Below are positions 16,108 through 48,502 of a stretch of 64,000 nucleotides of DNA, piece after piece (within the stretch, counting starts at the first letter, position 1; the number at the start of each line of letters is the position of its first letter). Below the pieces are notes generated by a model, which saw nothing but the letters and a program-made list of their open reading frames with translations, searched no databases and was not told the DNA's origin. This DNA is from an uncultured Nitrososphaerales archaeon. GTDB lineage: Archaea > Thermoproteota > Nitrososphaeria > Nitrososphaerales > Nitrososphaeraceae. The stretch covers positions 640,001 through 704,000 of the forward strand of contig CAVQMO010000010.1 of assembly GCA_963713605.1 (NCBI GenBank), read 5' to 3'. Made by a program: the position numbers and the translations under genes.

Positions 16108-16287
16108 TAACGATAGATTTCATTTATCCAGCCTCACCAAGGCGTTCCCAACCGTTCCCGGCACTTCTGATCTAGGTTAGGTACAAGACCCCTAATCGGC
16201 CCAGCTATGCGAAACACTCTCATAGAATGCCCAATGAAAGGAACTTACGGTAATACTTTTATATATCAAAATACTATTAGAAAGAAA

Positions 16288-25195: not shown

Positions 25196-25930
25196 TTTTG
25201 GTAATCTCTGTGAACTATATACAATCCAGAATATAACCAAATTGGAATTTTCTTCTCTAACTGAAATAACTGAAATATATTGAACTAATGATCTTTTTGA
25301 GAACCTCTATATATTAAGCGTCAACTATTTACACGCTGTAGTCTGCCTTGTTTTCAAGATAGCGCGATTTTCTGGATATTTTAGGTGTCTTTAACTTCGA
25401 CAGAGAAGGATTCAACACTAAAGCGAGATACATACCATTGCATTTCATTATGACATCCACCATGGATGAGGGCGTAAGAGATGATTCTCGACTATCGTTT
25501 TCATTCTCGAACATTAGAATTAGTTCCTAAAATGACTATTACGAATGCCCACGGGGAAGGAGATGAAGATAAAGATGAATTGGGATTCGCGATGCAAAGA
25601 ATTCAATTTTCGTAAAATCGGTTAGATCATGCTATTACTGTCATTCGACTGGTATTGTCGAAGCCTTAAAGAGGTAACAGATGAAAAATATGAGCTTCTC
25701 GTATTTTAACAATCTTATAGGTAATTCCAGAATCCCTTTGGTTTCCAGAATGTAATAACAAATAGTTCAAAAAATGAAGGGACTGCTTTTGGAAGGAAGA
25801 AAATAAAGATAAGTAGCATTATCTGCATTTGCAATCACACATCGATTCAAGTAATGCGGTATGGTTACGGATACAAGACTATGGAAGACATATAGCTAAA
25901 ATATATAAGCCATAGCGTTCGGTCAAATTT

Positions 25931-28900: not shown

Positions 28901-29523
28901 CTCCAGAGTGTGATCCTCCTGAAGTACTAAATCCAGATACAAATCAATGCGAAGCTCCTCAAGAAGCAGCTCCAGAGTGTGATCCTCCTGAAGTACTAAA
29001 TCCAGATACAAATCAATGCGAATCTCCTCAAGAAGCAGCCTCCAGAGTGTGATCCTCCTGAAGTACTAAATCCAGATACAAATCAATGCGAAGCTCCTCA
29101 AGAAGCAGCTCCAGAGTGTGATCCTCCTGAAGTACTAAATCCAGATACAAATCAATGCGAAGCTCCTCAAGAAGCAGCTCCAGACGGTGGTGCGAGCCCC
29201 AGACGGTGGTGCAGGTCCACAGGCAGCAATTTGCAGCTCCAGAAGATACAACTCCTATCTGTACTCCTCCTGAGGTTTTGAACACTGACACCGGTGAATG
29301 CGAGGTTCCGGAACCGCCTCCAGGTGACAATGAAGCAGTAGCTCCTCAAGTAGGCGTTCCCTCCTGTCTTCCTGGCGAGGTGTTCAATCCTGCCACAGGA
29401 ATATGCGAGGTTACTCCTCCAACTGAATCAGGCGATCAACCACCTAACAATGGTGGAATACCGTCAGGACCACCAGCGAATGGAGAAACTGATGGCGATG
29501 GAGACCAGCCAGACCAAGAGTGA
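25931..29523 (+). CDS. Large secreted poly-Ala/Gly/Ser repeat protein with C-terminal Cys-pair repeats; probably one gene broken by many indels
   Basis: Signal peptide ending QIFA, then about 2 kb of GCN-rich codons giving A(5-8)G blocks in alternating frames, an APPEDGV linker, 13x CDPPEVLNPDTNQCEAPQEAAPE and a Pro/acidic tail. Stop at 29523, followed by a T-tract. Confidence 0.7.
28277..29183 (+). repeat. 69-bp coding tandem repeat, 13 copies
   Basis: Unit GCAGCTCCAGAGTGTGATCCTCCTGAAGTACTAAATCCAGATACAAATCAATGCGAAGCTCCTCAAGAA, without spacers. Confidence 0.95.
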
Positions 29524-30113: not shown

Positions 30114-30986
30114 TCAGAAGACCGATTTAAGTGCCTTTACGAATTTGGATGAATCTGAAACCCATCCAAAGACCCCACCTTGCATCTTTATTTGCTTTAT
30201 AGCAGCCTGATAATTGTCGTAGTCAGTAGCTCCAGTACCATCTTTTAGTAACAAGCACCAGTATCCATTGTCGTTGGCTTCCCTCATTATGGTGTGTACA
30301 CACACATCGGTCGTGATTCCTGTTATGATAAGATGGGTAATACCAAGATTCCGTAAAATCAATGGCAGGTTACTCTGGCCAAATGCGCCTTTACCTGCCT
30401 TGTCTACCACATATTCTCCTGGAATTGGATAAACGTCATCTATGATGTCCCAATTTTTTTCACCCCTTATGAGTAGCCTGCCCAAACCTCCTTTAGGAGT
30501 ATCACCGATTCCTATTCCGTTTCCAATAATTTTACTGCGGAGTATTTTATTGTAAGGCGCGTCAGAGAGATCCGGAAGATGCCCTTCCCTAGTATGGACC
30601 ACCTTGATGTCTGTTCCATTTCGAATTGTCTCCAAGGCATACATAATCTGTTTTATGGGAGCCGAGGTTAACCCAAGATCATATCCCATTACATCCACGT
30701 ATCCCTTTGAACCACAAAAATCAACTTGCATATCCACGCTTATGAATGCAGTTCTAGCTGAATCAAATTCAACAAATGCTTTGTCACCAAACCGTGGACA
30801 ATCCTCAACTTCTACTGTTAAAAGTTTACCTTTAACAGGACCATAAAGCCAGGTAGGAAATTTGAATGTATGACTTACCTTAAATTCCTCGTAGTCTCTT
30901 TCAACCTTGCTCACAATTTCATCTTTAACTCTAGTTGACATACTATTTTCAGATTTTCTTGCTCTTAGAGAATTAGTCTTCCTCAT
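30114..30986 (-). CDS. biuH: Biuret amidohydrolase (isochorismatase-family cysteine hydrolase)
   Basis: DMQVDFC..GYVDVMGYDL, HTREGH.PDLSD, DKAGKGAF, GITTDVCV..MREAND and KMQGGVFG closely follow BiuH as recalled. Confidence 0.8.
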   Translation of the reverse strand: MRKTNSLRARKSENSMSTRVKDEIVSKVERDYEEFKVSHTFKFPTWLYGPVKGKLLTVEVEDCPRFGDKAFVEFDSARTAFISVDMQVDFCGSKGYVDVMGYDLGLTSAPIKQIMYALETIRNGTDIKVVHTREGHLPDLSDAPYNKILRSKIIGNGIGIGDTPKGGLGRLLIRGEKNWDIIDDVYPIPGEYVVDKAGKGAFGQSNLPLILRNLGITHLIITGITTDVCVHTIMREANDNGYWCLLLKDGTGATDYDNYQAAIKQIKMQGGVFGWVSDSSKFVKALKSVF

Positions 30987-31274
30987 TAAAATTCGTCACC
31001 AAATTCAGTTACCAGCGTTTCTTTCGTCAACTTGTATAGTCAATCCTGAGAATAACGCTGTTGATGCACAGTACAAAATCCCATTAGATGAGAAGCAAGT
31101 TTGGTCACTCCAGGAGGCAATTCTAAATTTCGATACAATTGACAGGCGATATCATGTCGATTAATATAAGGATTAACTATCATTCTTTCTATTTGAAGAA
31201 AATATGATTAGAAAAAAAAACAATTTCATTTATGCAAAAATCTAACTACGACGTATTAGGGAGCCATAATCAGC

Positions 31275-32755
31275 TCATACGTTCCTATCGCTCAAGCAGG
31301 GTGCAAACATTCTTTCAGAAATTTTTGAATTACTCTCATACACGTTTGCAAGACTAAGAAGAAGACCTTCGTCGAATTCCCTTCCGACGAGCTGAACACC
31401 AACAGGAAGGATGCCGTTTACAAGTCCTGCAGGGACGTTAAGCGAGGGTAGACCTGTGACATCAAAGACAGTGGTAAGTCTACTGAGTGCTATATAGACC
31501 TCCGTATTTTTACCATTGATCTCTATCGAAGTGTCTTCCAACTTGGGAGCACTAATGGCAGTTGTTGGGTACTAACAGGCCATCCAGTCCCCTCATGGCT
31601 CTCAAAAAGTCGTCCTTTAGCTCCTTCTTGTAGCGAAGTGCAGTTATATATTCAACAGCAGTAATTTTGGTCCCTCTTTCAAGCATGGCCAACACATCAC
31701 TTCCGTACTCATTGCGCCTAGAATTCAGCCATGTAGAATGAACCGCTGCCTGATTCACCTAATCGGAACGCCTTCCAAGCGTCAGAAATCTTGTGTGTCT
31801 CATTTAAGGAAACTGGGACCGTTGAGATCCCACATCCGTGCATCTCATCCAAACAGTCTTCAAAAATTTCCATAACGCTTGAATCGATTAGATCAAAAAA
31901 GTACTGTTCGGGTACACCCAAAGTAAATTTTCTAGACTTGTTCAAGGTCTCGGATACAATTTGAAGGTAATTAGGAACGGGCAAGTCCAGTGTTGATTCA
32001 TCCAATATGTCATAGCCAGCAATCGCTTGCAATAGCGCCGCCGTATCCCATGCAGTTCGTGCAATTGGCCCAACATGGTCGATCGATGGGGCCAACGGCA
32101 TCACTCCATATTTGCTGACTCTCCCGTATGTGGGTTTTAAACCGAAAAGCCCACATAATGAGGAAGGAACTCGGATAGAACCACTGGTATCAGTTCCTAG
32201 AGAGCCTACCGCCATCCCTGCGCTTACAGCAACTGCTGAACCACCACTGGAACCCCCTGACATTCTACTAGGATCCCATGGGTTCCTTGATGAGCCATAA
32301 TGGGGATTTATGTTGGTAATTCCGCAAGCGAATTCATGAGTATTGTTCGTGCCCACTATAATTGCCCCAGCTTCCTTGAGTCTTTTCACTACAGTAGCAT
32401 CATAGTCAGGCACAAAGTCTGAAAGTATCCTTGAGCCACTGGTACTTCTTACGCCCCTAACGTAAATTAGATCCTTCAAACTCACAGGGATTCCGTGCAA
32501 TGGACCCAAGTATTTACCATCACGTATATCCACCTCCGCCTTTTTCGCTTCCTTTCTGGCAGAATCTCCTGTCACAGTTATGTATGCATGAACCTCTTCG
32601 TTTAGGTCATTGATCCTCTCAAGTGTTTCTTCAACCAGATCGACCGGTGACAAAGACTTGGAAGAAATGAGCTTGGAGAGCTCATGAATACTGGATCCTA
32701 CAGTTTTTGTACTTGTAAATTCCCGCACTAATCTATTCATTCTCCTGGTTGTCAC
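31275..32755 (-). CDS. Amidase-signature family enzyme (AtzE/AtzF/GatA-like), two indels
   Basis: GPLHGIPVSLKD, GGSSGGS, GTDTSGSIRVPSSLCG and GLPSLNVP...PVGVQLVG across three ORFs. Confidence 0.88.
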
Positions 32756-33131
32756 TGGTGGCAGGAGTAACAGATTTTTCCATCATGATGTTGCAGCCTT
32801 TTGACTCTCTTCCATGCCTCACTGTAACTTCGTGCAATGTTAGTTACTAATGTGTCGACTTAATATCCTTATTATATCATTTTGAAAAATCGTTACATAT
32901 ATCAATAGAAGCAGCATTGTGGATATATGCAAACCATGAACATTGCTAACCAATTTTCATATTATTTACAACATCTAGGTACGCAACAATAAGGATGTGG
33001 ACAGATATTGTGGTTCGCTGTTAATTAGCAAGCTTACATTTAGCAAATCACCCGAGGTTACGCCTCACTTACTGGTGAAAGTTTAATATATATTTAAAAA
33101 TAAAATCTTATGTTATCAACCCTGTCGCTGT

Positions 33132-33686
33132 ATGAAATCAATATTGAAGCCCAGAAAAAGACGTTCAAAGGGCAATCAAGATAGTTTTTCAGGCCAGTCC
33201 TTGGTTTCGATCGTTGCACCATCAATTGAATTGTTCAACATAATTCATGAGGCGTGCTCGGTTTTAGAAAACTTTGGTATCCCATACGAGACTACCATTG
33301 TTGCCGCTCACAGATCACCTATCAGGGCAATCAAATATGCAAGTAATCTTGAAGTTAGGGGGATAGAAGTTGTCCTCGCTTGCGGAACCGGATCAGCACA
33401 TCTCCCTGGAATGATAGCTTCGTTTACCAACCTTCCTGTAATTGGAATACCTTTGGCACATGCTTCATCCCTATTGGGCGGTACGGATTCTTTGCTTTCT
33501 ATGATTCAGATGCCTCAAGGGGTGCCAGTTGCCACAGTAGGTTTAGGTTCCGCGTACAATGCTGCTCTTCTAGCCTGTCAGATTCTGAGTCTTAAATATC
33601 ATTTTTTAAGGGAAAGGCTTCAATTGCACAAGCAAAAGATGGAGGAGAAGGTAGAATCTGATCAAAGCTACTTAAAAGTTAGTTAA
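33132..33686 (+). CDS. purE: PurE-family (N5-CAIR mutase-like) protein, atypical
   Basis: AAHRSP, AHLPGMIA, DSLLSMIQMPQGVPVATV and NAALLA; the MGSxSD loop is replaced by APSIEL. Confidence 0.75.
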   Translation: MKSILKPRKRRSKGNQDSFSGQSLVSIVAPSIELFNIIHEACSVLENFGIPYETTIVAAHRSPIRAIKYASNLEVRGIEVVLACGTGSAHLPGMIASFTNLPVIGIPLAHASSLLGGTDSLLSMIQMPQGVPVATVGLGSAYNAALLACQILSLKYHFLRERLQLHKQKMEEKVESDQSYLKVS

Positions 33687-33712
33687 CCATTTAAGATTGG
33701 AAGGCAATCGCT

Positions 33713-34676
33713 ATGAGAATCGCTAGAGTAGCAAAAGAAAATTTAGAGTCCAAGGAATCAGCAATGGCCGAAGAGATGGATGATAATAGAGCTGAGTCCT
33801 AGAGTAACGGCTATGTTACCTGACCCCCATTCTGTTACTTACGCGATTGTCAACAGAAATGGAGATGCAATCATAGCAGACGAAATTGAGTCTCAAACTA
33901 ATATTCAAATTCCTCCTACTTTAGAAGAATTCATCTTTGAAGGATATTCAGATCGAGTAGGAAAGGTTCTTGACGGTTTGAACCTTACTCACAATATCTT
34001 CAGTTTTCGTTTGCTCCCGCCAATAACTAGATCATTTAAAGTAATTTGTTTGGCATTTAATTACCAAGACCAAGACACTTGGTTACGTTTCGGAAAGTTT
34101 CCTCCAAAGGACCCTGTGATATATATGAAGGCCCGAACCAGTTTGACTGGGGCATTCGAAGATATAATCTGTCCCTCGTTTGTAAAGCAGCTTGATTATG
34201 AAGGAGAGTTAGCTTTAGTGATTGATAAGAAGTGCAGAGACGTAGAAATGAATAAGGCATTAGAATATGTAGGCGGATATTTCGTATTAAATGACATTTC
34301 AGCTAGAGATGTACAATTCATTGATAAACAATATAGTCGAGCCAAAAGCTTTGATTCATTTGGCCCATGTGGGCCATGGATAGTCACTCGCGATGAGATT
34401 CCTGATCCAAATGATTTACAATTGACCACAAAAGTGAACGAAGAAGTTAGACAGTATTCTTCTACTTCTAAGCTCGTTCTAAAAATTGAGAAAATAGTAA
34501 ATAGTCTAAGTAGTGTAATGACGCTGGAAGCAGGAGATATAATATCAACAGGAACTCCTAGCGGAACGGCTTTATCGAAGTCGTCACACCTTAAATATTT
34601 ACAACATGGAGACATTGTAGAAGTTGAGGTTGAGGGTATAGGCAAAATAAGAAATAAGGTGAAATTTGTTAACTAA
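33713..34676 (+). CDS. Fumarylacetoacetate hydrolase family protein (probable indel near the 5' end)
   Basis: LDYEGELA, NDISARD, AKSFDSFGPCGP and GDIISTGTPSG; MRIARV start at 33713 is in another frame. Confidence 0.88.
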
Positions 34677-34784
34677 ATAACCTGTTGGGTTTGTGTGGGG
34701 TAACCCGAGATGAAAAATAAATCTTGGCCATTACCCTGAACTCAAGAACGGATCACCCTTTAGTAGCAGTAACAGCAGCCGATT

Positions 34785-35720
34785 CTATCTTTCTCCTCTC
34801 TTGTAGGGAGTTGCCAATGCAGCGGGAGCTACACTCTTCTTGTACATAACTGCCAGGATGGCGATTGGGAGTAAGTAAGGTAGCATGAGCAAAAACTGAA
34901 ATGGAATAGTCGTTCCTATTGACTGCAGCCCCAATGCAATAGCATTGACCATTCCGTAAACGAAAGCACCTAATACTATCCAAAAAGGTCTCCATCTGCC
35001 GAAGATTACAGCTGCAAGGGCAATCCATCCTTGTCCAGCGGCAATGCCTTCAGAAAAGGACCCAGTAGTTACCAAGGCGATATAGGCGCCTCCCAAACCT
35101 GCAAACGCCCCCCCGATGATTACCGACATGTAGCGAATCCTGTTTACGTTTACACCCAGCGTATCGGCCTGCTTTGGGTTCTCTCCCACCGTTCTTATCT
35201 TTAGACCAATGTTTGTCTTGAAGAGAAAAATATGAGTCAAAGGAATTAGCAAAAATGCAAGATAGATCATTGCGTCATGATGAAAAATGATAGGTCCCAA
35301 AACTGGAATCGAAGTCAAAAATGGGATGTCCACAAGAGGAATAGTAGGTACTGTGGGTGCCACCGTGACTACGCCAAAAGTCAATCGGTATAGCAGTGCA
35401 GCTAGGCCGACCCCTAAAAGCCAGATGGCTAAACCAGCAACCAACTGGTTTGTGCGTAAGCTTACACTTAGAAAAGCCATAAGAGCTGCCATGACCATCG
35501 GCCCAGAAACAGCAAATAATATTCCAATGATTATATTCCCTGTGACGAACGTTCCAATAAAGCCGGCAAATGCTCCGATTAACATCATTCCTTCAACCCC
35601 TAGATTGAGAACACCTGAACGTTCAGCTATATTTTCACCTAGCGCAGCAAAGAGCGAGGGTGTACTCATACGAATACCTGACGCAACTATTCCGATAATA
35701 AAATCAATCATTTCTACCAA
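34785..35720 (-). CDS. ABC transporter permease (nucleoside/purine type)
   Basis: AALGENIAERSGVLNLGVEGMM and GQGWIALAAVIFGRW. Confidence 0.92.
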   Translation of the reverse strand: MVEMIDFIIGIVASGIRMSTPSLFAALGENIAERSGVLNLGVEGMMLIGAFAGFIGTFVTGNIIIGILFAVSGPMVMAALMAFLSVSLRTNQLVAGLAIWLLGVGLAALLYRLTFGVVTVAPTVPTIPLVDIPFLTSIPVLGPIIFHHDAMIYLAFLLIPLTHIFLFKTNIGLKIRTVGENPKQADTLGVNVNRIRYMSVIIGGAFAGLGGAYIALVTTGSFSEGIAAGQGWIALAAVIFGRWRPFWIVLGAFVYGMVNAIALGLQSIGTTIPFQFLLMLPYLLPIAILAVMYKKSVAPAALATPYKRGER

Positions 35721-35729
35721 TTTGTCAAT

Positions 35730-36848
35730 TCACTCCATATTCCCCCTCTCCGCAGGCGCACCAATCTGCTTCCCATGGTTCTCTAATTTGTCTTCAACGA
35801 CTCTCTTGATTCTTTTTGGAAGGTGAATTCGGGTAAATACTTCTCCGATTAGAACGAAAACCAAAACGAGTGCCTGCAATGTTTGAGCAAAAGCAACTGG
35901 TATGCCTAGCGTTCTATACATAGATTCAGATCCTGCGAGCAAGACCGCAAAGAAGAAAGCGACAAGACAAACTCCCAAGGCATTTTCTCTCCCCAAAAGT
36001 GCAATGATCACAGCGATAAATCCATAACCAGGAGAGATACCCTCGATGAGTCGATGTTGGACGCCGGCTAGAAGCACTGCTCCAGTTAGTCCCGCCAGCC
36101 CTCCACTTATAGCCATGGTTATCAGGATACTTTTCGTTATGTTCATACCTGCATAACGTGCGGCTGAAATGTTCATGCCCACACTTTTCAATTCAAATCC
36201 AATCTTACTTTTCCATAGAAAATGGACAAAAATGGCGGCCAGAGCCGCTATGATTAGTCCTGCATGCAATCTAGTATGCTCTACCAAAATAGGCAGTTCA
36301 GACTCCGGAAAGATATCGGGACTGTAGGGCAAAAACCCTGGCGCTTTGATCGGCCCATGTAGAAGGTAAGAAATAAAGAGAAGTGCTACGAAATTGAGAA
36401 GAACGGTTACAATTATTTCACTTACACCCAATTTGACTTTGAGTACTGCTGGCACAAGACTGAACATTGCTCCAAATGCAATGCCCGCAATGAGGACGAT
36501 AATAACCGACACTACAGGAATCATACCCACCACAGCAATCCCAACCAGCAACCCTCCCAGAGCTCCCATGTAGAGTTGACCTTCAGCGCCGATATTCCAT
36601 AATTTGCACTTAAATGCGACAGCTACCGCAAGACCTGTAATGAGCAGCGATATAGTCTTTACAAGTGTATCTGCAATTGCACGCGTAGATCCAAGTGATC
36701 CCTTAATCAGTAAAGCATAGGCTTCCAGGGGATCCACACCTGCCGCATAAAGTATGATTCCTCCGACCAAAAAAGCCAGCCCCCCTGACAGGAACGGGAC
36801 GATGTGTTTAAAACTGAGTCTCTTTCCGAGTATGAGAGTTGTGGTCAA
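35730..36848 (-). CDS. ABC transporter permease (nucleoside/purine type)
   Basis: WNIGAEGQLYMGA, AARYAG and GYGFIAVIIALLG. Confidence 0.92.
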   Translation of the reverse strand: MTTTLILGKRLSFKHIVPFLSGGLAFLVGGIILYAAGVDPLEAYALLIKGSLGSTRAIADTLVKTISLLITGLAVAVAFKCKLWNIGAEGQLYMGALGGLLVGIAVVGMIPVVSVIIVLIAGIAFGAMFSLVPAVLKVKLGVSEIIVTVLLNFVALLFISYLLHGPIKAPGFLPYSPDIFPESELPILVEHTRLHAGLIIAALAAIFVHFLWKSKIGFELKSVGMNISAARYAGMNITKSILITMAISGGLAGLTGAVLLAGVQHRLIEGISPGYGFIAVIIALLGRENALGVCLVAFFFAVLLAGSESMYRTLGIPVAFAQTLQALVLVFVLIGEVFTRIHLPKRIKRVVEDKLENHGKQIGAPAERGNME

Positions 36849-36896
36849 TTTTGCAGATCACAATCTCCTATATTTCCATAATCTTTAGGCATCATT

Positions 36897-38582
36897 TCAA
36901 GTACCAGCCTCCACTACATAGCCCCCCATTAACGGGCCTATTATATCGACGTCTGCTGTTGTCCTGTCAAATACCCCCATTATCCTACCGGCATATATCA
37001 CTGCTATCCTATCGCTGAGTAGTAGAATTTCATCTAAATCTAAGGACAACAGTAAAATTCCTACTCCAGAATCTCTTTGTTTAAAAAGTTGTTTGTGAAC
37101 ATATTCGGCAGCACCCACATCCAATCCTCGTGTAGGGTTATGAGCAATAAGCAGTTTATGTTCCTTTGACAATTCTCTTCCAAGTACGATTTTTTGTAAG
37201 TTACCACCCGATAAATAGCGCACTTGAATATCTAGACTTGGAGTTCTCACATCAAATTTTGTGACGATCTCTTCTGCAAATCTTTTCATTTCGTGTTTAT
37301 TTAAGAATATCTTGCCAGAGTACGGTCTGCTATACCACCGGTCCAAAATTAGGTTTTCAGCGATACTGTACTCTAGAATAAGACCAGTGTTGAGCCGATC
37401 TTCAGGTATGTAAGCGAGACCCCATTCTCTGATCTGCCTCGGTGACATTCCTTTTATGTCGCGTCCGTCAATGACTACCTGTCCACTCTGAATCTTCCTC
37501 AATCCCGAAATAATCTCTGCCAATTCGCTCTGACCATTGCCATCGACGCCTGCAATTCCCAATATCTCACCTTTTGGTACTGTTAATGACAGGTCCTTAA
37601 GCGCTTGAACCCCAGAGTTGTTCAAAGCAAACACATTTTTAAGTTCCAGCACCGTGGCAGGTTCAGCTGCGGGTTTTGCTTTAGACGATTTCTGAATTCC
37701 CACATGGATCTCTTCATGCCGCTGGCCTACACTTTGAGTGAGTGACCTTCCTATCATCAATTTTGCAAGTTCTGTCTCGGTTGTCTGTTCAGTAAATACC
37801 GTACCAACAACTTTTCCACCTCTAAGAACCGTTACACGTGTGCTTGCTTCCATGACTTCATTTAGCTTGTGCGTGATGAATATTATCGAAAGTCCGGCCT
37901 TTACCATAGCAGATAACGTCGAAAACAATGCCTTTTCTTCAACGGGGGTAAGCATCGAAGTAGGCTCATCGAGGATTAGAATATCAATATCCCTGTAGAG
38001 TGCTTTTATTATTTCTACCCGTTGTTGCTCGCCTACAGACAGGTCACCCACGATAGCTTTTGGGTCAATCTTAAGACCGTATTTCCTAGATAATTCCAAG
38101 ATCTTTCTTTCTGCTTCCGCCGTATTCAAGAAAATAGATCTTCCAGGTGACTTTAGCCCGACAATAATGTTCTCTGTAACTGTATGACTAGGTGTCAATA
38201 AGAAATGCTGATGAACCATAGCTATCCCAAGGCCTATGGCATGAAGAGGAGATTTTATGTCAACCTTTTTTCCCTTCACAAAAATTTCTCCCGCTTCTGG
38301 TTTGTAGAGTCCATACAGTACACTCATCAAAGTTGTCTTTCCAGCACCGTTTTCTCCAAGAAGACCATGAATTTCGCCTCTAAAAAGATCGAAGTCCACA
38401 TCGTTATTTGCTATAACCTCATTAAATCTGCACGTTATGCCGTTCATAGAAAGTATTGGTTGGTCATCTTGCGTTCTGGCCGGCGCTGATTGTGAGGGTT
38501 TCGGATTCGGAAGGGGGGAAGGAGCGAAAGCAGAGTGGTCAACATTTGAGTTTGTAAGAGGAGGAGAACCGGCATCAGACAT
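36897..38582 (-). CDS. ABC transporter ATP-binding protein with two NBDs
   Basis: GENGAGKTT, LSVGEQQRVEI, ILDEPT and LSGGNLQK. Confidence 0.95.
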   Translation of the reverse strand: MSDAGSPPLTNSNVDHSAFAPSPLPNPKPSQSAPARTQDDQPILSMNGITCRFNEVIANNDVDFDLFRGEIHGLLGENGAGKTTLMSVLYGLYKPEAGEIFVKGKKVDIKSPLHAIGLGIAMVHQHFLLTPSHTVTENIIVGLKSPGRSIFLNTAEAERKILELSRKYGLKIDPKAIVGDLSVGEQQRVEIIKALYRDIDILILDEPTSMLTPVEEKALFSTLSAMVKAGLSIIFITHKLNEVMEASTRVTVLRGGKVVGTVFTEQTTETELAKLMIGRSLTQSVGQRHEEIHVGIQKSSKAKPAAEPATVLELKNVFALNNSGVQALKDLSLTVPKGEILGIAGVDGNGQSELAEIISGLRKIQSGQVVIDGRDIKGMSPRQIREWGLAYIPEDRLNTGLILEYSIAENLILDRWYSRPYSGKIFLNKHEMKRFAEEIVTKFDVRTPSLDIQVRYLSGGNLQKIVLGRELSKEHKLLIAHNPTRGLDVGAAEYVHKQLFKQRDSGVGILLLSLDLDEILLLSDRIAVIYAGRIMGVFDRTTADVDIIGPLMGGYVVEAGT

Positions 38583-38762
38583 ATTTAGCTAAATACCCCC
38601 TATTGCACTTGTATTGGAGGGTACAATGAAACAAAAAATAATCTTCCCAGTATTGACATCTTTCCTACTTTTTATCTCATGGCTGGAGAATTGACAATGA
38701 AGATAATCTACAAGGTTGTCATTTCCAATAATTCTAATTTGATCCTTTTTATGGAACAAAAA

Positions 38763-39822
38763 TTAGGACGACGCTTCTGTCCGCTCCGGAACTACGATCT
38801 TGCCACTTATTATATCTTGGACTATTTGGTTAAGCTTCTGTTTCACATCAGCGGGAACCTTGCTATCGAGATTATGGAATGGTGCAATGAATACGATACC
38901 ATCTCCGGAGGCGCCTTTTGCAGTCTCTAATCCCGGCTTATAAAGCTGACCACTAAAGTTACCATTCTGGACCATTTTTATTGCTCCGTCGAAGGCCTTT
39001 TCCATATCAAGTAACGAAAGAGGTCAGCACTGTATCCGGCGCAAGATTATGTTGATCTGCAACTACTCCTAGAGCATAAATGCCCTTTTCTTTTGCTGCT
39101 TGAATCACTCCCTGTCCTGACAGGTCGGCAACGTGAAACAGGAAATCAGCACCATTATTTATTAACGAGACTCCGGCTTCCTTTCCTCGAGCAGGATCAG
39201 TGAAAGTATCGATATATTGTCCTATTACCTTGATGTCAGGATTGATGGACCTAGCTCCCTGTTTATATCCCTCAAATATATTTATTATGTTAGGATATGC
39301 CTGACCACCTACAAAGCCAATTGTGCCTGTCTTTGACATCATTGCCGCCAATGCTCCAAGGACATATGATCCCTCTTGCTGCATTGGAAAGACAGATGCT
39401 ACATTACTACCGTTGGTTAGGCCTGTAAAGACTACAAACTTTGTATCAGGATAGTCGGCACCAACTCTCAGAGCTGGATCACCCCACTCAAACCCATGAG
39501 CGATAATAAGATTATTTCCTTGATCTGCAAAATCTCTCAAGGTTGGCTCTATATCAGGAATCGCAACATTCTCGACAGTGGTCAACTCCAAACCGTATTT
39601 TTCCTTTAAGGCCTGCGAAGCGTTATATGCTGTGGCACCCCATCCGCCATCGCTGAATAATGCATCAGTTAAAAGTGCCACCTTCAATGGTGTTCCTTCC
39701 TCTTGTGCCCAGACTCGTTCCAACGTCGGGTATGAAAAAGTAGACCCAGTGATCAAGACTACAGCAACCATAATTCCGGCTATAGCGCCCGTTAGTTTCC
39801 TTACATTAGATCTTTTGGACAT
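38763..39822 (-). CDS. BMP/PnrA-family ABC substrate-binding protein (indel near 39005)
   Basis: IIAHGFEW, GALAAMMSKTGTIGFVGG, GVIQAAKE and DQ...APDTVLTS; C-terminal IISGKIVVP in ORF 38763..39005. Confidence 0.9.
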
Positions 39823-39881
39823 ACTCCAACATTCATAGCGATTGCAGATCGTAATATAGTTTGTCTGATTTAAGCTAAAGA

Positions 39882-39899
39882 TTTATGATATATCATAAA
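39882..39899. promoter_or_regulatory. Perfect 18-bp palindrome, candidate operator
   Basis: TTTATGATATATCATAAA; a second TTATGA-N4-TCATAA site is at 40088..40103. Confidence 0.5.
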
Positions 39900-40208
39900 A
39901 AAGAAGGTTTACATTGAACTAGTGCCAGATCGAATGTCCGTGTTTTTTATGCTTTGGCACACAGTTTAGATATGTAAAATCTAATCTTTCTAAATACCTA
40001 TCTGACGAAGGCAAACTGAACCTCGCCTTCTAGGAAACCACCTTTCAATTATTACAATCTCGATCGCTGTAAATGAAAATCTACCGCTTATGATTATTCA
40101 TAACATCTACAATATTATATAATCAAATGATGACTGTATTTATGCGCATTTTTAGCTGAAAGCGCAACTATGCTTAAATACTATAGCTTTGAACGCTGAA
40201 CTACGAAA

Positions 40209-41933
40209 GTGAGCAAGTCCATACCTTCGGTGGATACTCATCAAAATGTTCTAGTTAAGCACAACTATTATAGAGATTCACTTGAACTTCTTAGATTGTC
40301 CGATGAGATTAAGCGATATCCTGGAATAATCGAAGCCTCTCTAGTAATGGGTACTAAAACTAACAAAGAAATCTTGATTAAATTAGGCTTCCCCACCCAA
40401 CATATTGCGAAGGCAGAAAGCTCAGATATGATAATTGCTTTGAGAGCTAAGGATGCCGCCTTGTTACTTGCAACAATCCCAAAAATCGAAGCCATTCTAC
40501 GTGGGACTGGCGGGGAGCAAATCCTAGAAATGGACCATTCCTCGACTAATGAGAGCCGTGATCTTGAGTCGGTGCTTAGATCTGTTAAGGACATTAATAT
40601 TGCATTAATTTCTGTTCCTGGCGAACATGTTAGAAGCTTGGCATTCAAATTGATCGATGAAGGAATTCACCAACAGATTTTCAGCGATCATGTGAGCATA
40701 GATGATGAGCTTGAGATAAAAAGACATGCACTGAAGAATCGTGTATTGATCTTGGGACCAGGTGCTGGGACGTCAATTATCAGCGGAAAAGGAATTGGGT
40801 TTTCAAATGCTGTTGCCACGGGCCCTGTCGGGATTGTAGCAGCAGCGGGTACAGGATTACAAGAGGTTTCCACATTACTAGATCGTTGTGGAATAGGTGT
40901 TAGGCATGGGTTGGGAGTTGGAGGAAACGATCCTAAAGAAAAGATCGGTGGTTTGATGATGTCAGAAGCGTTAAAGATGCTGGATGAATGTGAAGATATT
41001 GATGTGATAAATATTGTGTCAAAGCCTCCGGCAACAAGTGTCCAGCAGAGAATACTTAATCATGCAATTAAGCATGGAAAGAAAAAGTACGTGATGACCT
41101 TTATCGGGCAGCAGCGCATCTATCGAAAATACTAAAGTGAAAAAAATGAGCAGCAGCACCAAGAGGCGTACCAGACAATCAAACAAAATCATTATCGCCA
41201 ACACTCTTACCTCATCGGTCTTTGCAACAGCAAAACTTATCGCTAGCGTGAACAAGTCTGAATCGTCAATGGATCCTATTCATGTCAAGATTGAGGATCT
41301 CAAACGAATTGTAATGGCAGAACGGAAGCGCCTTAGCAATGAACAAAAGTACCTAAGGGCATTGTACACCGGTGGCACTTTTGCATATGAAACACAGGTT
41401 ATTCTTAATGGCCTCGCTATAAGGCCACTCTATTCTAACGCTCCCCTATCCAAGACGCAACTTCTACAAGACGCAATGAAAAGTTTCAAGAATTCAGTTA
41501 TCGATCTTGGTGAGGAAGAGTTTACTAAAGGCAGGGCACATCCAATGATAGACCCCACAATAAGAAAACTCAGAATAAGTGAAGAAGCATCGTATGACGA
41601 CGTTGCGGTAATAGTCCTCGATTTTGTACTTGGTTATGGATCAAATCCTGATCCAGTTGGCTCGGCTATTGATGAAATTAGAAATGCAAAGCTGCCTGGC
41701 CGCGAAAGCCAAGAGACACCTTAGCGTTGTAGCTCATGTCTGTGGGACGCGAAGAGACCCTCAAGGTTATGACCGATCTCTGACAAGATTGAAGGATGCA
41801 GGTGTTCTGGTTCTTCCTACCAATTCCTTCGTTGCAATAGCTGGCTGCAGGTATAGTGGCCAAAGGGCCTATCGACTTCCGAGAGGCATATTCACGGTTT
41901 ATTGGAGAAACCCATCAAGGTGAATTGACATAA
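40209..41933 (+). CDS. fdrA: FdrA / AllF-like acyl-CoA synthetase-fold protein (several indels)
   Basis: YYRDSLELL, MGTKTNKE, ALISVPG, FSDHVS, GPGAGT, GTGLQEV, LYTGGTFAYE, DLGEEEFTKGRAHPMIDP and DFVLGYGS. Confidence 0.88.
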
Positions 41934-42106
41934 TGTCCAACACACAAAAGAAATTATTAGATTCAGATTTAACAGTAATTAATATAGGTGTGAATATCTT
42001 TTATGATGCACTAAAGGTTCAAAATGTTAAAGTCATTCAAGTAGATTGGAAACCAGGTCCTGTGCTTGATAAGCTTAGTGAAGAGATTCTATCAAAAATC
42101 ATGTAA
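41933..42106 (+). CDS. Small FdrA-associated protein (57 aa), missed by the ORF track
   Basis: MSNTQKKLLDSDLTVINIGVNIFYDALKVQNVKVIQVDWKPGP...; the VINIG...F...L..Q...V..VDW.P motif matches the FdrA C-terminal segment; TAATG coupling. Confidence 0.8.
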   Translation: MSNTQKKLLDSDLTVINIGVNIFYDALKVQNVKVIQVDWKPGPVLDKLSEEILSKIM

Positions 42107-42206
42107 TCTTATTCGAAGGCAAGAATGAATGACAAAACGTTAAGTGCTATACAATTTGATGTAAAGGAAGAGACTGACATGGCAATCAAATACATCGAGT
42201 GGAGAT

Positions 42207-43160
42207 ATGTCCACAACAGTGGTAAGCGATGACATGGTAGCCTTCAAGTGCGAGTGCATAGGAGTGTTGTACAAGGATATGCGCAAGTTTACAGCCAAGA
42301 AGTATCTAGTTGGTAAGGTCATAAGCTCGTTTCCCTCTAGTCTCAACATCAAGACTTCAAGAAACGAACTGTTGGTCATAAGTCTAAACAAGATACACTC
42401 TGCTATCACAGTAAATCTGAAGCCTCAATTTAGCAACTCCAATTTCGCGGGACTTATCGATTATGGAGATGATGTAGTCAAATTCCTGAATTCGGTCTCC
42501 ATTGGCGAAAGAATGGAATTGCTTACGGCGAAGAGTATTATCTTTAAAAACTGTTTTGTGGGGCCCACATCTGCTGGATTGTACAAAATTAGCGACGCTG
42601 CAGAAAGAATTTTGAGTTCCCTCATGGAATTAAGGAGGAATGGATGTCTGCTGGAACCGGAGATCACAAATCAAGGCCTTTTTCATCAATTCGTTGCCGA
42701 AACTTCAGAGAATAACATTAGGAACAAGGATAACACTAGATTTGTTAGGACGTTATCCCATTCATTGATGAAAATGTGCGGAAGGGGCCCCGGATTCACA
42801 CCGTCTGGAGATGATTTCATCTGCGGTTTTAGTTCCTTGTTTAATTGGCTATCGCAAAGTCTAAAATGTCCTCCTATATCGCTGCCAATGAAGAGAGTCA
42901 GCGATTTGACCACTTGGAACAGCTTCAAATTCATTGAATATTATCAGAAATTGATCGTTGATGAACAAATCCAAGGTTTGATCAATTCGATTGGGGAAGG
43001 GCGTATTGACCGGTTCATATCATTGTTATCTACGCTAAGCTGCAGAGGACACACATCCGGCATAGATATCAGTACAGGCCTATCTACAGCTTTGTTCACT
43101 TTTTGCGATCGGTTCCTTGGGACAGATCTCTTACCCAAAGTTCAAAGCTTTTCGGAGTAG
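42207..43160 (+). CDS. DUF2877 (YlbF/AllH/YahE-like) protein
   Basis: GRGPGFTPSGDDFICG and GHTSGID motifs. Confidence 0.85.
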   Translation: MSTTVVSDDMVAFKCECIGVLYKDMRKFTAKKYLVGKVISSFPSSLNIKTSRNELLVISLNKIHSAITVNLKPQFSNSNFAGLIDYGDDVVKFLNSVSIGERMELLTAKSIIFKNCFVGPTSAGLYKISDAAERILSSLMELRRNGCLLEPEITNQGLFHQFVAETSENNIRNKDNTRFVRTLSHSLMKMCGRGPGFTPSGDDFICGFSSLFNWLSQSLKCPPISLPMKRVSDLTTWNSFKFIEYYQKLIVDEQIQGLINSIGEGRIDRFISLLSTLSCRGHTSGIDISTGLSTALFTFCDRFLGTDLLPKVQSFSE

Positions 43161-43452
43161 AGAAATCGACAACAAGACCAATATCTGTAACGATGTCAAA
43201 AAGAGCGTGAGAGAATCGAAAATTTATCTTCATTCGAGAATGAAGTGAGTAAGGTGTCAATGTTTAGGAATTTGCTTTATCATCCACTGAAATCGAATCA
43301 GAGATATTAGATCGAATTCAAGAAGTGGTTGCAAGTTACATATCTTATTTTAGATAATTTATATATCAATGTATGCTAGTTTTATGATAAATGCATATTC
43401 TTAGATGTTCTGGGCATTAAATTTAAATAAGATATTCCTAGTTTAGTAACTC

Positions 43453-44427
43453 TTGAGTAATTCAAGATCAGATCTAATCGTTTTTGCTATTGGTGGGAAT
43501 GCTCTTGTGAGATCTGGTGAGAGAGGAACATTTGAAGAACAGTATCAAAACGTACAGATTGCTGTGAAGCAGATCGTTGAATTTATGAAGAGAGATAAAT
43601 GCAGAAACAGAATAGTTCTGACTCATGGTAACGGACCACAGGTGGGAGCAACCCTTGTAAGGCATAGTTTAGCTGACGAATACTGCCCTGCACTGCCATT
43701 ATACGTATGTACCGCAGAAACGCAGGGGTTTATAGGCTATATTATTGAACAAGCATTGCAAGATGAGCTAGACTGTTCAAAAATAAATAAAAATGTTACG
43801 ACCCTCCTTACTAGAGTAGTTGTTGATTCAAATGATAATGCATTTCTCAACCCAACTAAGCCTATCGGAGAAACATTTAGCGACGAAATGACCGAAGTCC
43901 TCTTGAAAAATGGAATAGTACATCTTGAAAAACGAAAGGTAGGCTCTGACGGCACAAAGTTCAAACTCGTAGTTCCATCACCAAAGCCTATCACCATTGT
44001 AAATTATGAAGCAATTCGTTCTCTAGTAGATGCTGGATTTATTGTCGTCGCATGCGGGGGCGGAGGAATTCCAGTGATGAAGGAGAATCGGAATACCTTA
44101 GGAGTCGATGCTGTGATAGACAAAGACCTTGCCAGTGAAAGACTAGCAACTTCAATAGGTGCCTCAACTTTGGTGTTACTAACCAACGTGGATGGAATAT
44201 ATAGGAACTATGGAAAGAAGAATCAAGAGCTTATAGGTACGGTCAGTATAGGAATGAATCTCGAACAGGAATTAGGGTCGCAGGACCTAGAAAGTGGTAG
44301 CATTGGTCCCAAAGTGCAAGCGGCCATCTCATTTATAAGAAACGGAGGAAAGGAGGCAATAGTCTGCTCTCTTCAACACCTTTCTGATGCATTAGCCGGT
44401 ATATCTGGGACACATTTCTTTAGATGA
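43453..44427 (+). CDS. arcC: Carbamate kinase
   Basis: AIGGNAL, THGNGPQVG, AETQGFIGY, NPTKPIG, VVPSPKP, GGGGIPV, AVIDKD and GSIGPKV. Confidence 0.95.
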   Translation: MSNSRSDLIVFAIGGNALVRSGERGTFEEQYQNVQIAVKQIVEFMKRDKCRNRIVLTHGNGPQVGATLVRHSLADEYCPALPLYVCTAETQGFIGYIIEQALQDELDCSKINKNVTTLLTRVVVDSNDNAFLNPTKPIGETFSDEMTEVLLKNGIVHLEKRKVGSDGTKFKLVVPSPKPITIVNYEAIRSLVDAGFIVVACGGGGIPVMKENRNTLGVDAVIDKDLASERLATSIGASTLVLLTNVDGIYRNYGKKNQELIGTVSIGMNLEQELGSQDLESGSIGPKVQAAISFIRNGGKEAIVCSLQHLSDALAGISGTHFFR

Positions 44428-44451
44428 CCTTTACTAGAGGGAATATTCACA

Positions 44452-45709
44452 ATGAACAATAAAACTAGAATCAAAGAGCGTATAGAAGAAGCTAACAGTA
44501 AGGCCCTCGAACGGATGCGTTTATCCAGGCCCACTCTTGTCGATATTAAATATGCAAGGGATATTCTGCCTCAAATGAAGAAGAATTCAATTTTTCATGC
44601 AGGTCCTCCCATTGATTGGGAAAGGATGTGTGGCCCATTGCGCGGAGCAATCGTTGGGACTATGATCTTTGAGGGATTAGCGACGACTTGGAATGATGCT
44701 GTAAAATTGATAAGGCAGGGCGACATCGAATTCTCCTCTAATCACGATCATGATGCAGTAGGTCCTATGGCAGGGGTAATCTCGCCATCGTTGCCTATTC
44801 TTGTTGTTAAAGATCAAAGTAATGGCAAGACCTGTTTTGCCCGATTCGTAGAAAACAGAGTGCAATTTGGACTTTTCGATAAGGAGTCAGTTGATGTTCT
44901 TAGATTTTGGTCTGAAAAACTATCCCCCTTATTGGGCAAAGCTATTCGTAAGAGTAGGGGAATCGATCTTAAACCGATAATGGCTAAAGCATTGCACATG
45001 GGAGACGAACTGCATAATAGGCCAGCCTGCAGGCACGTTACTATTTGAAAGTACCATATTACCTCATCTATTGGTAGTCTGTAGTCTAGATGAAGTAGGA
45101 GAGATTACAAGATATCTTTCAGAAAATGATATTTTTTTCCTGTGCGTGAGTATGGCTGCATGCAAAGCAATCACAAAAGCCGCTCATGGCATCCAATATA
45201 GTACGTTAGTAACAGTTATGGCAAGAAATGGAACTAACTTTGGAATAAAGGTGAGTGGTTTAGGGAATGACTGGTTTGTCGGAGAGGCAAACATGATTAA
45301 GGGATTGTATTTTCCGGGTTATGGCCCTGAAGATGCTAATCCTGATATTGGTGATAGTGCCATTACAGAGACTGCTGGTATTGGAGCATTCGCTCTGGCA
45401 GGATCTCCTGCAATATTGGCGCTCATTGGTGGATCTGCCGAAGATGCTATAAAGTACACATATGAGATGCGCAAAATTACGAATTCACTTAATGAAACAT
45501 TTACCTTGCCAATCATTAATTTTCAAGGTACTGCAACTGGTATTGATATCCGAAAAGTGATGAGAACCGGGATAACTCCTGTTATCGATACGGCTATAGC
45601 ACATAAACAAGCAGGAGGGGGCTACATTGGAGCAGGTCTAGTACGGGCACCTTTGGAGCCCTTCAAAAATGCTTTACACGCTTATGGTAAAAGATATAAA
45701 TTGGTTTGA
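44452..45709 (+). CDS. DUF1116 (YlbE/AllG/YahG-like) protein (indels near 45030-45070)
   Basis: HAGPPI.W..MCGPLRGA, AVGPMAG, ALHMGDELHNR, MARNGT.FGI, DIGDSAITETAG and GITPVIDTAIAHK. Confidence 0.9.
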
Positions 45710-46215: not shown

Positions 46216-46434
46216 TCACTCCTTTTCAAAGCCCTCTTTATGGATCCAATAGTATGATATCCTGTCAGCACCAATCCAATATGTTTCGGTACTGGCGTCC
46301 ACAACTATCTCTTTAGTAGCATTTTCAAACTTCACATTATGCTTGTGTAGTTCAATCTTTTCACCGGTATCTAATCTAATCATTACCTCACCGTTTTTAT
46401 CCACGCTGGCTTTCAAAGCTTCGAAATTTGCCAT
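46216..46434 (-). CDS. Small hypothetical protein
   Basis: 72 aa, beta-rich (GEVMIRLDTGEKIELH, ETYWI, YYWIH). Confidence 0.7.
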   Translation of the reverse strand: MANFEALKASVDKNGEVMIRLDTGEKIELHKHNVKFENATKEIVVDASTETYWIGADRISYYWIHKEGFEKE

Positions 46435-46754
46435 ACTCTATTTCACGGTCAGTACCTATTAACCTTTGAATTGATTGACTTCAATCCATTAGAATCGGAA
46501 GCGACCCTTGCACAAGAAGTTAATGGGGATTGGGCTAGTAGGGTGACTCCTTCATGTTTGGGTTCTGGATGAGCCACAGAAAATATCACATGGGGAATGT
46601 CAGTCTAAAGATAAATCAGTGTCAATAGTTACACTTATGGGTGTATCCATGAATAAGATACCGATATATGACATTTATACGTATAATTCCCATAGTACAT
46701 TCGTCAGTGAAATACGTTCTTGACTCTTATATACACTAATCTATGTGAATAAGC

Positions 46755-48502
46755 GTGCTTAAAAGAAATTCTGTACAATCGTATATTCTAATAGCTATAG
46801 CACTTGGAGCAATAACACTCCACATAGTGCCAACGACTCAGGTATTCGCAAATTCTTCTGATTCAACAGAAGCAGCCGCAGCTGCCGCAGCAGCAGGTGA
46901 AGCAGCTGCAGCAGCTGCAGCGCAGCTGGTGGATCTGCAGCGCCGCGAGCAGCAGCTGGTGATGCAACGCAGCAGCAGCGGCAGCAGCTTCAAAGTATGG
47001 CTCGGCAGCCTCAGCAGCGGCAGCTGGACATGCAGCGCAGCAGCGGCAGCTGCGAGCAGGTGGATCAGCCAGCAGCGCAGCAGCAGCAGGTAGCGCAGCA
47101 GCCGCAGCAGCAGCAGGCGGATCAGCCGCAGCAGCAGCAGCGAGCAGGCAGTGCAGCAGCAGCAGCAGCGGCCGCAGGCAAATACGGCTCAGCCGCAGCC
47201 GCAGCAGCCGGCAGCGAGCAAGCGGTAGCGGTGCTTCAGCAGCCGCAGCGACGAGCAGCCGGCAAGGGAGCAGGCAGCAGCAGTAGGAGCAGCAGCGGGC
47301 TATTCCGCAGCTGCTGCTGCCGCCGCATCCTCTTCGGGACACCACGGATTAGCAGCAGGCAGCAGCTGGAGCCGCGTCAGGTGGAGGAGCAGCAGCAGCC
47401 GGAGCAGCAGCAGGCGGATCAGCCGGAGCGAGCAGCAGGAGCAGGCAGTGCGAGCAGCGAGCAGCAGCAGCTTCAGGAGGAGGTTCTGCAGCAGCAGGAG
47501 CAGCAGCAGGTAAGGGAGCAGCCAGCAGCGAGCAGCCACGCGGCAGGCGGATCAGCCGGCAGCAGGCAGCAGCAGCCGGTGGTGGAGCAGGAGCAGCAGC
47601 TCGCATCAGGTGGTTCTGCGGCAGCAGCGCAGCAGCCGGTCGGTGGAGCAGCAGGCAGCAGCGCAGCTTCAAGCGGAAATGGTGGTGCAGCGCAGCCCGC
47701 AGCCGCCTCAGGTGGCGACAATGGCTACAAGAACTATGGCAAAGACAAAGACAGTTCTTCAGCAGCTGCAGCTGCAGCAGCATCCGAAGATTCAGGACGC
47801 AGCAGCCGCAGCAGCAGGTGATGCAGCAGCAGCAGCAGCATCAGCAGCAGGTGGTTCTGCAGCAGCCGCAGCCGCGAGCAGGCGATGGAGCTGCAGCCGG
47901 GGCAGCGCGAGCCGGCGGAAACGGCGGATCTGCAGCGCAGCGCAGCCGCCTCAGGTGGCGACAATGGCTACAAGAACTATGGCAAAGACAAAGACAGTTC
48001 TTCAGCAGCCAGCCGCAGCGCAGCAGGAGCATCCGAGGATTCAGCAGCCGCAGCAGCCGGAGCATCCGAAGATTCAGCAGCGCACAGCGGCAGCAGCAGG
48101 CGCATCCGAAGATTCAGCAGCGCAGCAGCAGCAGCATCCGAAGATTCAGCAGCCGCAGCCGCAGCAGCAGGTGATGCAGGAGCAGCAGCAGCAGCTGCAG
48201 CAGGAGCCAGCGACGATCATGGTAAGAAGAGGTCTGGAGATGACAGCTCTTCAGCAACCGCAGCAGCGCAGCAGGAGATGACGCAGCAGCAGCAGCCGCA
48301 GCAGCTAGTGATGACAAAGATGAGAAGAAGAAGGGTGACCACAATGACGGAAAAGGATCTAAGGATGAATCTAGCAACAGATCTAATGATGGCGGTGAAG
48401 CGAATGATGGCGATAGCGAAGAAAGCAGTGGCGGCGAGGGGAGAAAGCAGTGGCGTCGAAGAAAGCAGTAGTAGTAGCAGCAGCAACAGCGACGACGAAT
48501 AA
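46755..48502 (+). CDS. Second secreted poly-Ala/Gly/Ser repeat protein with charged tail; one gene broken by indels
   Basis: Signal peptide homologous to that at 25931, A(5-8)G blocks, D/E/K/S-rich C-terminus; stop at 48502 followed by a T-tract. Confidence 0.7.

Follow-up and report, generated by a model that had tools for sequence, protein, structure and literature searches.

A biuret hydrolase and AllFGH–carbamate kinase cluster in a Nitrososphaeraceae ammonia oxidiser that may release ammonia from biuret-series ureides

We analysed a 64,000-nucleotide stretch of archaeal DNA (the window; assembly GCA_963713605.1, contig CAVQMO010000010.1, positions 640,001 to 704,000) in which 13 genes at positions 30114–45709 unite a homolog of biuret hydrolase (BiuH) and three neighbouring genes with an ATP-binding cassette (ABC) importer, counterparts of the E. 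coli AllFGH proteins and a carbamate kinase. The reading that we put forward, for and against which we find the case evenly balanced, is that these genes form a functional two-module system that would turn biuret-series ureides into ammonia for ammonia monooxygenase (AMO).

Loci of this type have already been described in ammonia-oxidising archaea (AOA), and the window holds one more complete example. Rasmussen et al. (2025) report AOA metagenome-assembled genomes (MAGs) that carry a biuH whose product is extended at the N-terminus, a gatA-like amidase gene, purE, an FAH-family gene, bmpA-nupABC and allFGH-allK, note biuH/allFGHK genes in N. viennensis and comammox, and propose that ammonia is supplied from biuret/triuret and oxalurate (PMC12625717). 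The window carries the same set (biuH, gatA-like amidase, purE, FAH, bmpA-nupABC and allFGHK) in an amoA-bearing member of the Nitrososphaeraceae, and shares with the published clusters the host family, the idea of ammonia from purine-derived ureides, the N-terminal extension of BiuH and the missing upstream enzymes. An earlier sequence-only description of the window (the first-pass annotation) had presented this ammonia source as an addition for AOA; the genes and the inference are already in that paper. The published account, which is genomic only, differs from ours in assigning AllFGH to oxalurate, and it reports no atzD in its nitrifier MAGs (PMC12625717). A literature search, mostly without subscription papers, returned no further treatment of the cluster.

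The open reading frame (ORF) list and Pfam and NCBIfam searches confirm the 13 contiguous genes, in four blocks and in the order given by the first-pass annotation, and two genomes of the same genus have the same gene order. The features are as follows:

30114..30986, minus strand: BiuH-like cysteine hydrolase, 290 aa with an N-terminal extension of ~70 aa, intact (isochorismatase-like Pfam family, NF050097, PDB)
31275..32755, minus strand: amidase-signature enzyme ('gatA-like', AtzE/AtzF-like), +1 insertions at 31567 and 31747 (PF01425)
33132..33686, plus strand: PurE paralogue (PF00731; TIGR01162 over cut-off)
33713..34676, plus strand: FAH-family hydrolase/decarboxylase, +1 insertion at 33792, the listed ORF beginning downstream of the real start (PF01557)
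34785..35720, minus strand: ABC permease, NupC-like (PF02653, BPD_transp_2)
35730..36848, minus strand: ABC permease, NupB-like (PF02653, BPD_transp_2)
36897..38582, minus strand: ABC ATPase with two cassettes, NupA-like (PF00005 twice)
38763..39822, minus strand: BMP/PnrA-type substrate-binding protein, +1 insertion at 39012 (PF02608)
40209..41923, plus strand: AllF/FdrA, +1 insertions at 41105, 41695 and 41843 (CoA_binding and Ligase_CoA, PF02629/PF00549; NF004760 in three pieces)
41933..42106, plus strand: putative 57-aa split-off piece of the AllF/AllG complex (similarity to the bacterial AllG N-terminal extension; conserved position)
42207..43160, plus strand: AllH (DUF2877; PF11392, 64 bits against a cut-off of 25)
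43453..44427, plus strand: carbamate kinase of 324 aa, the ordinary form lacking an inserted domain (NF009007; TIGR00746; PDB 1E19)
44452..45709, plus strand: AllG (DUF1116), +1 insertion at 45026 (PF06545 in two pieces)

In the scheme that we propose, the substrates (triuret, 1-carboxybiuret, biuret and allophanate) would be made outside the cell. Module A, comprising the BMP-ABC importer, AllFGH and carbamate kinase, would take up a ureide and cleave its terminal carbamoyl group with phosphate, on the model of E. coli AllFGH with oxalurate; triuret or biuret plus phosphate would give biuret or urea plus carbamoyl phosphate, which the kinase would convert to ATP, NH3 and CO2. In module B, comprising BiuH, the amidase, the PurE paralogue and the FAH protein, BiuH would deaminate biuret to allophanate, the amidase would hydrolyse allophanate or carboxybiuret, and the PurE paralogue would probably decarboxylate an N-carboxy intermediate in the place of TrtB. 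Any urea would pass to the urease of the host. The genes, their order, their residues and their co-occurrence are observed, and from these we infer all of the substrates. ABC uptake costs about 1–2 ATP per molecule and the kinase would return one ATP per carbamoyl phosphate, so that its ATP probably only offsets the cost of import; the benefit would thus lie in ammonia (three NH3 per biuret and four per triuret, with urease finishing the urea) and not in ATP, and the gain of substrate-level ATP put forward in the first-pass annotation is doubtful.

The firmest substrate step is that of BiuH, whose action on biuret we consider probable with good confidence. Its best PDB match is 6AZO (E 4e-71), named in the match table only as a 'putative amidase', of which the sister entry 6AZQ is BiuH (PMC7948467); entry 6XJM ('Biuret hydrolase') also ranks above the TrtA entries 6XIX/6XJE (2e-44). 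All six residues essential in Rhizobium BiuH are kept (D85, F90, K196, K199, C229 and Q269). The catalytic cysteine, which we take to be C175 in the Rhizobium numbering, was placed by alignment to TrtA C162. The other Rhizobium residues are D36, F41, K142, K145 and Q215 (PMC7948467). At the positions that discriminate BiuH from TrtA, five of six match Rhizobium BiuH (Y96, Y102, D227, T254 and V272), and the sixth, A201, is of the TrtA type at a position that is neutral in TrtA. With the residues kept and the cluster conserved across the family, import of a nitrogen-rich ureide with release of ammonia, as first proposed for this locus, appears well supported.

The neighbouring amidase retains the motifs SLKDL, GGSSGGS and DTSGSIR. 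Its intact 487-aa orthologue in the related genome G225 scores about equally on AtzE and GatA models, all under cut-off, and by the NCBIfam cut-offs it is neither AtzE (335 against 461) nor the allophanate hydrolase AtzF (232 against 511). The gene is not the tRNA-linked gatA of the host, which lies elsewhere (C1:122011). A second host amidase, 45–49% identical, is found at C5:258624-259997. Module B resembles the bacterial TrtA-TrtB-BiuH-AtzF and AtzD pathways in its BiuH active-site residues and its amidase-signature partner (PMC7948467), and differs from them in that the window cluster has no second BiuH/TrtA-like gene, the host has no AtzH-family or AtzD match, the amidase is not AtzF, and AllFGH and a kinase are added.

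The catalytic roles in PurE belong to a histidine and the AHLPG loop, and its GSxSD loop binds ribose-phosphate. The PurE paralogue of the cluster keeps the catalytic core (H60 in 39 of 39 covering matches, AHLPG in 40 of 40, and DSLLSxxQMP) without the ribose-phosphate loop, which reads APSIEL here and GSESD in the housekeeping copy; the latter lies at C1:1024081 beside purK/purF-like genes and is 47% identical to the paralogue. An N-carboxy substrate free of sugar phosphate, such as carboxybiuret or allophanate, would fit these residues, and a role as N-carboxy decarboxylase, which TrtB fills in bacteria (PMC7948467), is a tentative suggestion. Carboxybiuret is reported to break down on its own with a half-life of ~20 min. 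A literature search on the PurE loop residues returned nothing relevant. Stand-alone copies of the C-terminal domain of allophanate hydrolase (PF21986) occur next to biuH in a Nitrosopumilus MAG (L058:10809-11207) and near allG in bacteria (L201:11432-11824), and their role may parallel that of the PurE paralogue. The FAH protein, whose best PDB matches are of the HpcE/HpaG type, has no role in biuret chemistry and is given no step in the scheme; a second host FAH gene (C10:822161-822988) encodes a protein 50% identical to it.

The nearest solved relatives of the BMP protein are Lbp (7X0R) and AtzT (6PI5), both at E ~1e-34. It shares their fold family and the aromatic sandwich (W61, with F/W at the positions of AtzT Y45/W194); it differs from them in that AtzT S97 and E165 are replaced by G and N and the nucleoside-binder motif GVDxD reads GVVAD. 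The aspartate of that motif has a role in nucleoside binding. Lbp binds guanosine, and AtzT binds guanine and hydroxyatrazine (PMC6834077). With GVDxD changed, a nucleoside ligand is doubtful, and a flat, sugar-free ligand would fit better.

The AllFGH subunits are encoded together (PF00549/PF02629 with pieces of NF004760 for AllF, PF06545 for AllG, PF11392 for AllH). The 57-aa protein matches no Pfam or NCBIfam family; one pairwise comparison (E 2e-8) likens it to the extension that bacterial AllG/YahG-type proteins have at the N-terminus, and its gene is conserved after fdrA in AOA loci. The carbamate kinase scores 302 bits on NF009007 (cut-off 266) and 336 on TIGR00746 (under its cut-off of 358), matches PDB 1E19 at E 2e-68, and in alignment to 1E19/3KZF has the motifs GGNA, HGNGPQVG and DKD and the lid lysine in NPTKP. 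The E. coli complex interconverts oxalurate plus phosphate and oxamate plus carbamoyl phosphate, and its operon, which includes AllK, is alike in bringing together the AllF, AllG, AllH and carbamate kinase families (PMC11326118). The window differs in that no AllB/AllD-type upstream genes were found, the host is aerobic, the 57-aa gene is separate, and a BMP importer and BiuH are linked.

Searches of the host genome (G000; 4.09 Mb, 87% complete, which bounds every host-wide negative given here) returned no match for uricase, cyanase, AtzH, the AllD family (Ldh_2; controls matched in 5 of 14) or AtzD (no control genome matched, and the same model matched two relatives); urease is present. The only cyclic amidohydrolase, at C1:438222-439650, is under every cut-off and is probably the dihydroorotase of the host. 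The analogy that the first-pass annotation drew with AllFGH in allantoin use lacks a source upstream, no uricase, AllD-family or AtzD gene having been found in the host; AllG travels instead with biuH and AtzD.

This last association comes from a survey of 238 family genomes, G000 included, in which kin are not independent and the tallies include the unpublished-flagged genomes G163 (kinase, AllG), G217 (biuH) and G132 (the sole Ldh_2 match). BiuH (E<=1e-60) was found in 54 of the 238, carbamate kinase in 43, AllG in 32, AtzD in two and Ldh_2/AllD in one, which is none of the 32 with AllG. Some of the 43 kinases stand outside this cluster; at L105:9479-11732, L106:8431-10801 and L107:9579-11950, Nitrososphaeraceae kinases of this kind lie beside a conserved gene starting 'RRAIIIGAAGRDFHNFN'. 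BiuH is present in 27 of the 32 AllG-bearing genomes compared with 27 of the 206 without AllG, and one of the five AllG genomes without a match (G237) does have biuH, cut by a contig end. The two sole AtzD genes (L128:5077-6186 in G105 and L129:2088-3191 in G098), from amoA-bearing bins, each lie in the same run of genes as allG and carbamate kinase, between the two and with a ParB-domain gene interposed; the contigs are short (6.8 kb in G098 and 8.7 kb in G105) and their assignment to those bins is provisional. At 513 against a cut-off of 360, the G105 protein scores as a cyanuric acid amidohydrolase, and its best PDB match agrees. Two further loci, L064 (Carnobacterium) and L073 (an archaeon), unite AtzD, two isochorismatase-like hydrolases, AllF/G/H and the kinase, L073 without an AllH match within the stretch retrieved.

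Because AllD is missing from the AllG-bearing relatives, 27 of 32 of which have biuH and two of which have AtzD beside allG, AllFGH is likelier to act on a biuret-series ureide than on oxalurate; that it splits such a ureide at all is a claim we would neither back nor dismiss. Such a substrate would be a natural one here, since biuret is carbamoyl-urea as oxalurate is oxalyl-urea, and the AllG family seems to comprise acyl-ureide phosphorylases that differ in the acyl group. A phosphorylase reaction on biuret-series polyureas was not found described in the literature.

The published proposal of two parallel routes (PMC12625717), in which AllFGH and the kinase split oxalurate, yielding oxamate plus carbamoyl phosphate, while BiuH and the amidase handle biuret separately, is a real though clearly less probable alternative. 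The oxalurate could come from abiotic oxidation of urate/allantoin or from cross-feeding, and the amidase could also hydrolyse oxamate. Oxalurate is the sole substrate shown for AllFGH (PMC11326118), the modules are separable across the family genomes, and in the clade that is sister to the main AOA AllG group (see below) the importer often stands beside allG/allF with no other recognised ureide enzyme, which fits the uptake of a ready-made acyl-ureide. Against these points stand the lack of an oxalurate-forming AllD family gene in the 32 AllG-bearing relatives, the recurrent linkage of allG to biuH and AtzD, and the distance from E. coli FdrA (3DMY), which the intact 572-aa AllF orthologue of G225 matches at E 1e-60 while remaining under the FdrA cut-off.

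Beyond the AOA the company of AllG changes. A quick tree built on 98 AllG rows (midpoint-rooted, no bootstrap or clade test, the broken allG of the window left out, no donor named) puts 17 of the 19 AOA rows, a marine thaumarchaeote among them, in one clade (SH-aLRT 98), whose sister is a mostly Chloroflexota clade with compact operons that join a BMP-ABC importer to allG, allF and usually allH; in one of these (L192) a BiuH over cut-off and an amidase sit between importer and allG. Since the non-AOA loci more often carry an XDH-like or a cyclase-family gene than a BiuH-like one, the AllG family appears to serve several substrates. It is conceivable, if improbable, that the cluster acts on some other acyl-ureide or heterocycle (e.g. 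one of the pyrimidine-derived ureidomalonate type), or that its main output is carbamoyl phosphate and nitrogen for biosynthesis and not ammonia for AMO. Such a substrate would suit those other AllG clades, as well as the FAH protein for which biuret chemistry has no use. Among 59 AOA-type biuH loci, many of them incomplete and with 11 non-AOA loci excluded, there is also a cytosine-permease-family transporter (codB) in 18 and a creatininase-family gene in 13, next to amidase in 38, purE in 35, FAH in 35, BMP-ABC in 19 and allF/G/H or kinase in 13. The window cluster, however, has no XDH-like or ring-opening gene, its BiuH residues are of the biuret type, and the carbamate kinase kept in the operon points to catabolism. 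Mutual exclusion of codB and BMP-ABC, suggested by their lack of co-occurrence in the 59 loci, was rejected, as G143 has both in one cluster.

Several observations count against a two-module system for biuret-series ureides. BiuH scores 281 bits on NF050097, under the cut-off of 370, and five genes are frameshifted in this assembly. Assays of AllFGH so far cover only oxamate/oxalurate (PMC11326118). The modules can run apart, since AllG went unmatched in half (27) of the 54 genomes with biuH; both AtzD-linked AllG proteins fall in another clade than that of the window; and among 78 non-AOA AllG loci a BiuH-like gene occurs in only six and AtzD in none, as against an XDH-like gene in 22 and a cyclase-family gene in 25.

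The frameshifts are eight +1 single-base insertions in five genes (three in fdrA, two in the amidase, and one each in FAH, BMP and allG). At none of the eight sites do the relatives compared have the extra base, and 11 of 46 conserved genes tested outside the cluster, EF-2 among them, also shift frame; the insertions are therefore probably sequencing errors. Four of the first seven sites lie <=3 bases from GCWGC, a motif covering 2% of cluster positions, a pattern that fits systematic long-read error. No frame-changing indel relative to G225 was found in biuH, purE, both permeases, the ATPase, allH or the kinase. The BMP orthologue of G225 is intact (354 aa), the FAH indel is seen against both G225 and G237, and the AllG Pfam domain lies in one open frame in G226, G227, G228 and G232. 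Genuine frameshifts, in a cluster undergoing decay in this strain, are very improbable: eight insertions do fall across five of 13 genes, and a decayed allG remnant in the same-genus genome G234 means that loss occurs, but all eight are +1 insertions with the placement just described, the same defect affects conserved genes elsewhere, and the broken pieces keep 74–94% protein identity to their G225 orthologues.

The host is a Nitrososphaeraceae AOA, as archaeal amoA (388 bits, C10:735668) lies on the same 1.13 Mb contig ~32 kb beyond the window end, and the best named BiuH matches (89–96%) are in Nitrososphaeraceae/Nitrososphaerales MAGs such as TH5896 and TH526; the first-pass annotation's probable ammonia oxidiser is thereby confirmed. 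A NirK-like gene at 16207-17442 scores below its family cut-off. Soil is the likely habitat, judging from the relatives; 20 of 24 sequencing runs contain part of the stretch, with soil or rhizosphere as the habitat label where one is given, and two RNA runs share only 5–6% of words with it, which is no evidence of expression. A scan for sigma-70 promoters in the BMP–fdrA spacer, with a model unsuited to an archaeon, was at chance (2 found, 2.0 expected). A chimeric contig, a concern raised at the outset, was rejected because the cluster aligns as one block to G225 (14.9 kb at 83%) and G237 (11.9 kb at 86%), with flanking genes common to both.

The cluster is, on comparison of these genomes, an old and patchily lost feature of the family and not a fresh island. 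Its GC content (41.7%) is barely above that of its flanks (38.5% and 40.1%), and GC at third codon positions is mostly inside the range of the host genes checked, with allH above it. The genome G234 (97% complete, no cluster) keeps the flanking genes and has its decayed allG at the same site (L222:4593-4940). The term 'island' was thus an overstatement, and the recent bacterial insertion that phylogeny was to check was rejected on the strength of this remnant and of the single clade that holds most AOA AllG proteins.

A side result that bears on module A comes from relatives of the host. In nine of the ten AllG-bearing genomes of genus g13 (five of the nine cut by contig ends) the carbamate kinase contains a BMP domain, which the window kinase lacks. 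Named records of the fused form read Nitrososphaera (P0001 is named N. viennensis); examples lie at L094:10811-12721, L097:9269-11182, L098:9297-11207 and L099:9674-11590 (proteins P0001-P0067), and at least 70 proteins, of 120 matches listed, combine >=93% query coverage with both Pfam families. Of the 636 residues the insert takes up about 140-462, and its order is that of a circular permutation, running from the BMP C-half through a linker to the BMP N-half. In an AlphaFold model (pLDDT 82) the kinase is complete (Z 40, root-mean-square deviation 2.5 Å, 308 of 313 residues of 1E19), with the insert in the auxiliary domain after K131 and before R485. The auxiliary (lid) domain must close for catalysis (PMC3659122), and the BMP pocket motifs are kept in most of 63 inserts examined; the fused kinase is a candidate natural ligand-gated enzyme. 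By tying the imported ligand to the kinase, the fusion supports module A as one pathway.

In FastTree trees (10 stand-alone rows left out by a motif filter) the inserts fall beside different stand-alone BMPs, and the stretch of bases identical between insert and stand-alone bmp amounts to 346 in G143 and 92 in G111, which fits gene conversion, a signal that collapsed assembly could inflate. Three fused-kinase matches look like cross-overs of kinase-insert and bmp genes. A literature search found no paper on a kinase with a permuted BMP insert, and the words fusion, fused and permut are absent from the main text of PMC12625717.

Other features of the window lie outside these arguments. On either side of the cluster (25900-29500 and 46750-48500) lie mutually similar GC-rich ORFs of low complexity, rich in Ala/Gly/Ser and signal-like at their start, and a Pro/Glu/Cys tandem repeat is found at about 28400-29400; G225 and G226 have similar sequence next to their clusters, and the window ORFs probably encode surface proteins, heavily frameshifted here. 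A conserved 72-aa gene (46216-46434, minus strand), with no Pfam or NCBIfam match, is kept at the locus even in G234. A metal-dependent amidohydrolase gene (48810-49977, plus strand), split by a frameshift here and encoding 388 aa in G237, occurs in nine of 14 genus genomes (one of them, G235, unpublished) with or without the cluster. Two near-identical ORFs for GlmU-like acetyltransferases (8937-9935 and 13418-14419), ~4.5 kb apart, represent a recent duplication or an assembly repeat, and positions 6864-8399 hold an FkbH-domain gene.

Nitrification in settings short of free ammonium is often driven by AOA. Urea fertiliser brings biuret and triuret into soil as impurities, and oxidation of urate can also give rise to them (PMC7948467). 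What the analysis adds is a sharper set of questions, on the ureide that AllFGH acts on, the function of the PurE paralogue, and whether a ligand gates the kinase of cultured Nitrososphaera. We hold it possible, though rather unlikely as a whole, that AllFGH in nitrifiers is a phosphorylase of biuret-series polyureas and the PurE paralogue a ribose-free N-carboxy decarboxylase, together with AOA that nitrify directly on such compounds and a ligand-gated kinase in Nitrososphaera. If so, soil AOA would nitrify directly on triuret and biuret (and, in the two MAGs with AtzD, on cyanuric acid) derived from urea fertiliser, s-triazines or urate oxidation, and in Nitrososphaera the same ligand would gate the kinase through a permuted binding protein in its lid. 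If the cluster works along the lines proposed, the Nitrososphaeraceae species genomes with biuH, about a quarter of the total, could nitrify on biuret/triuret.

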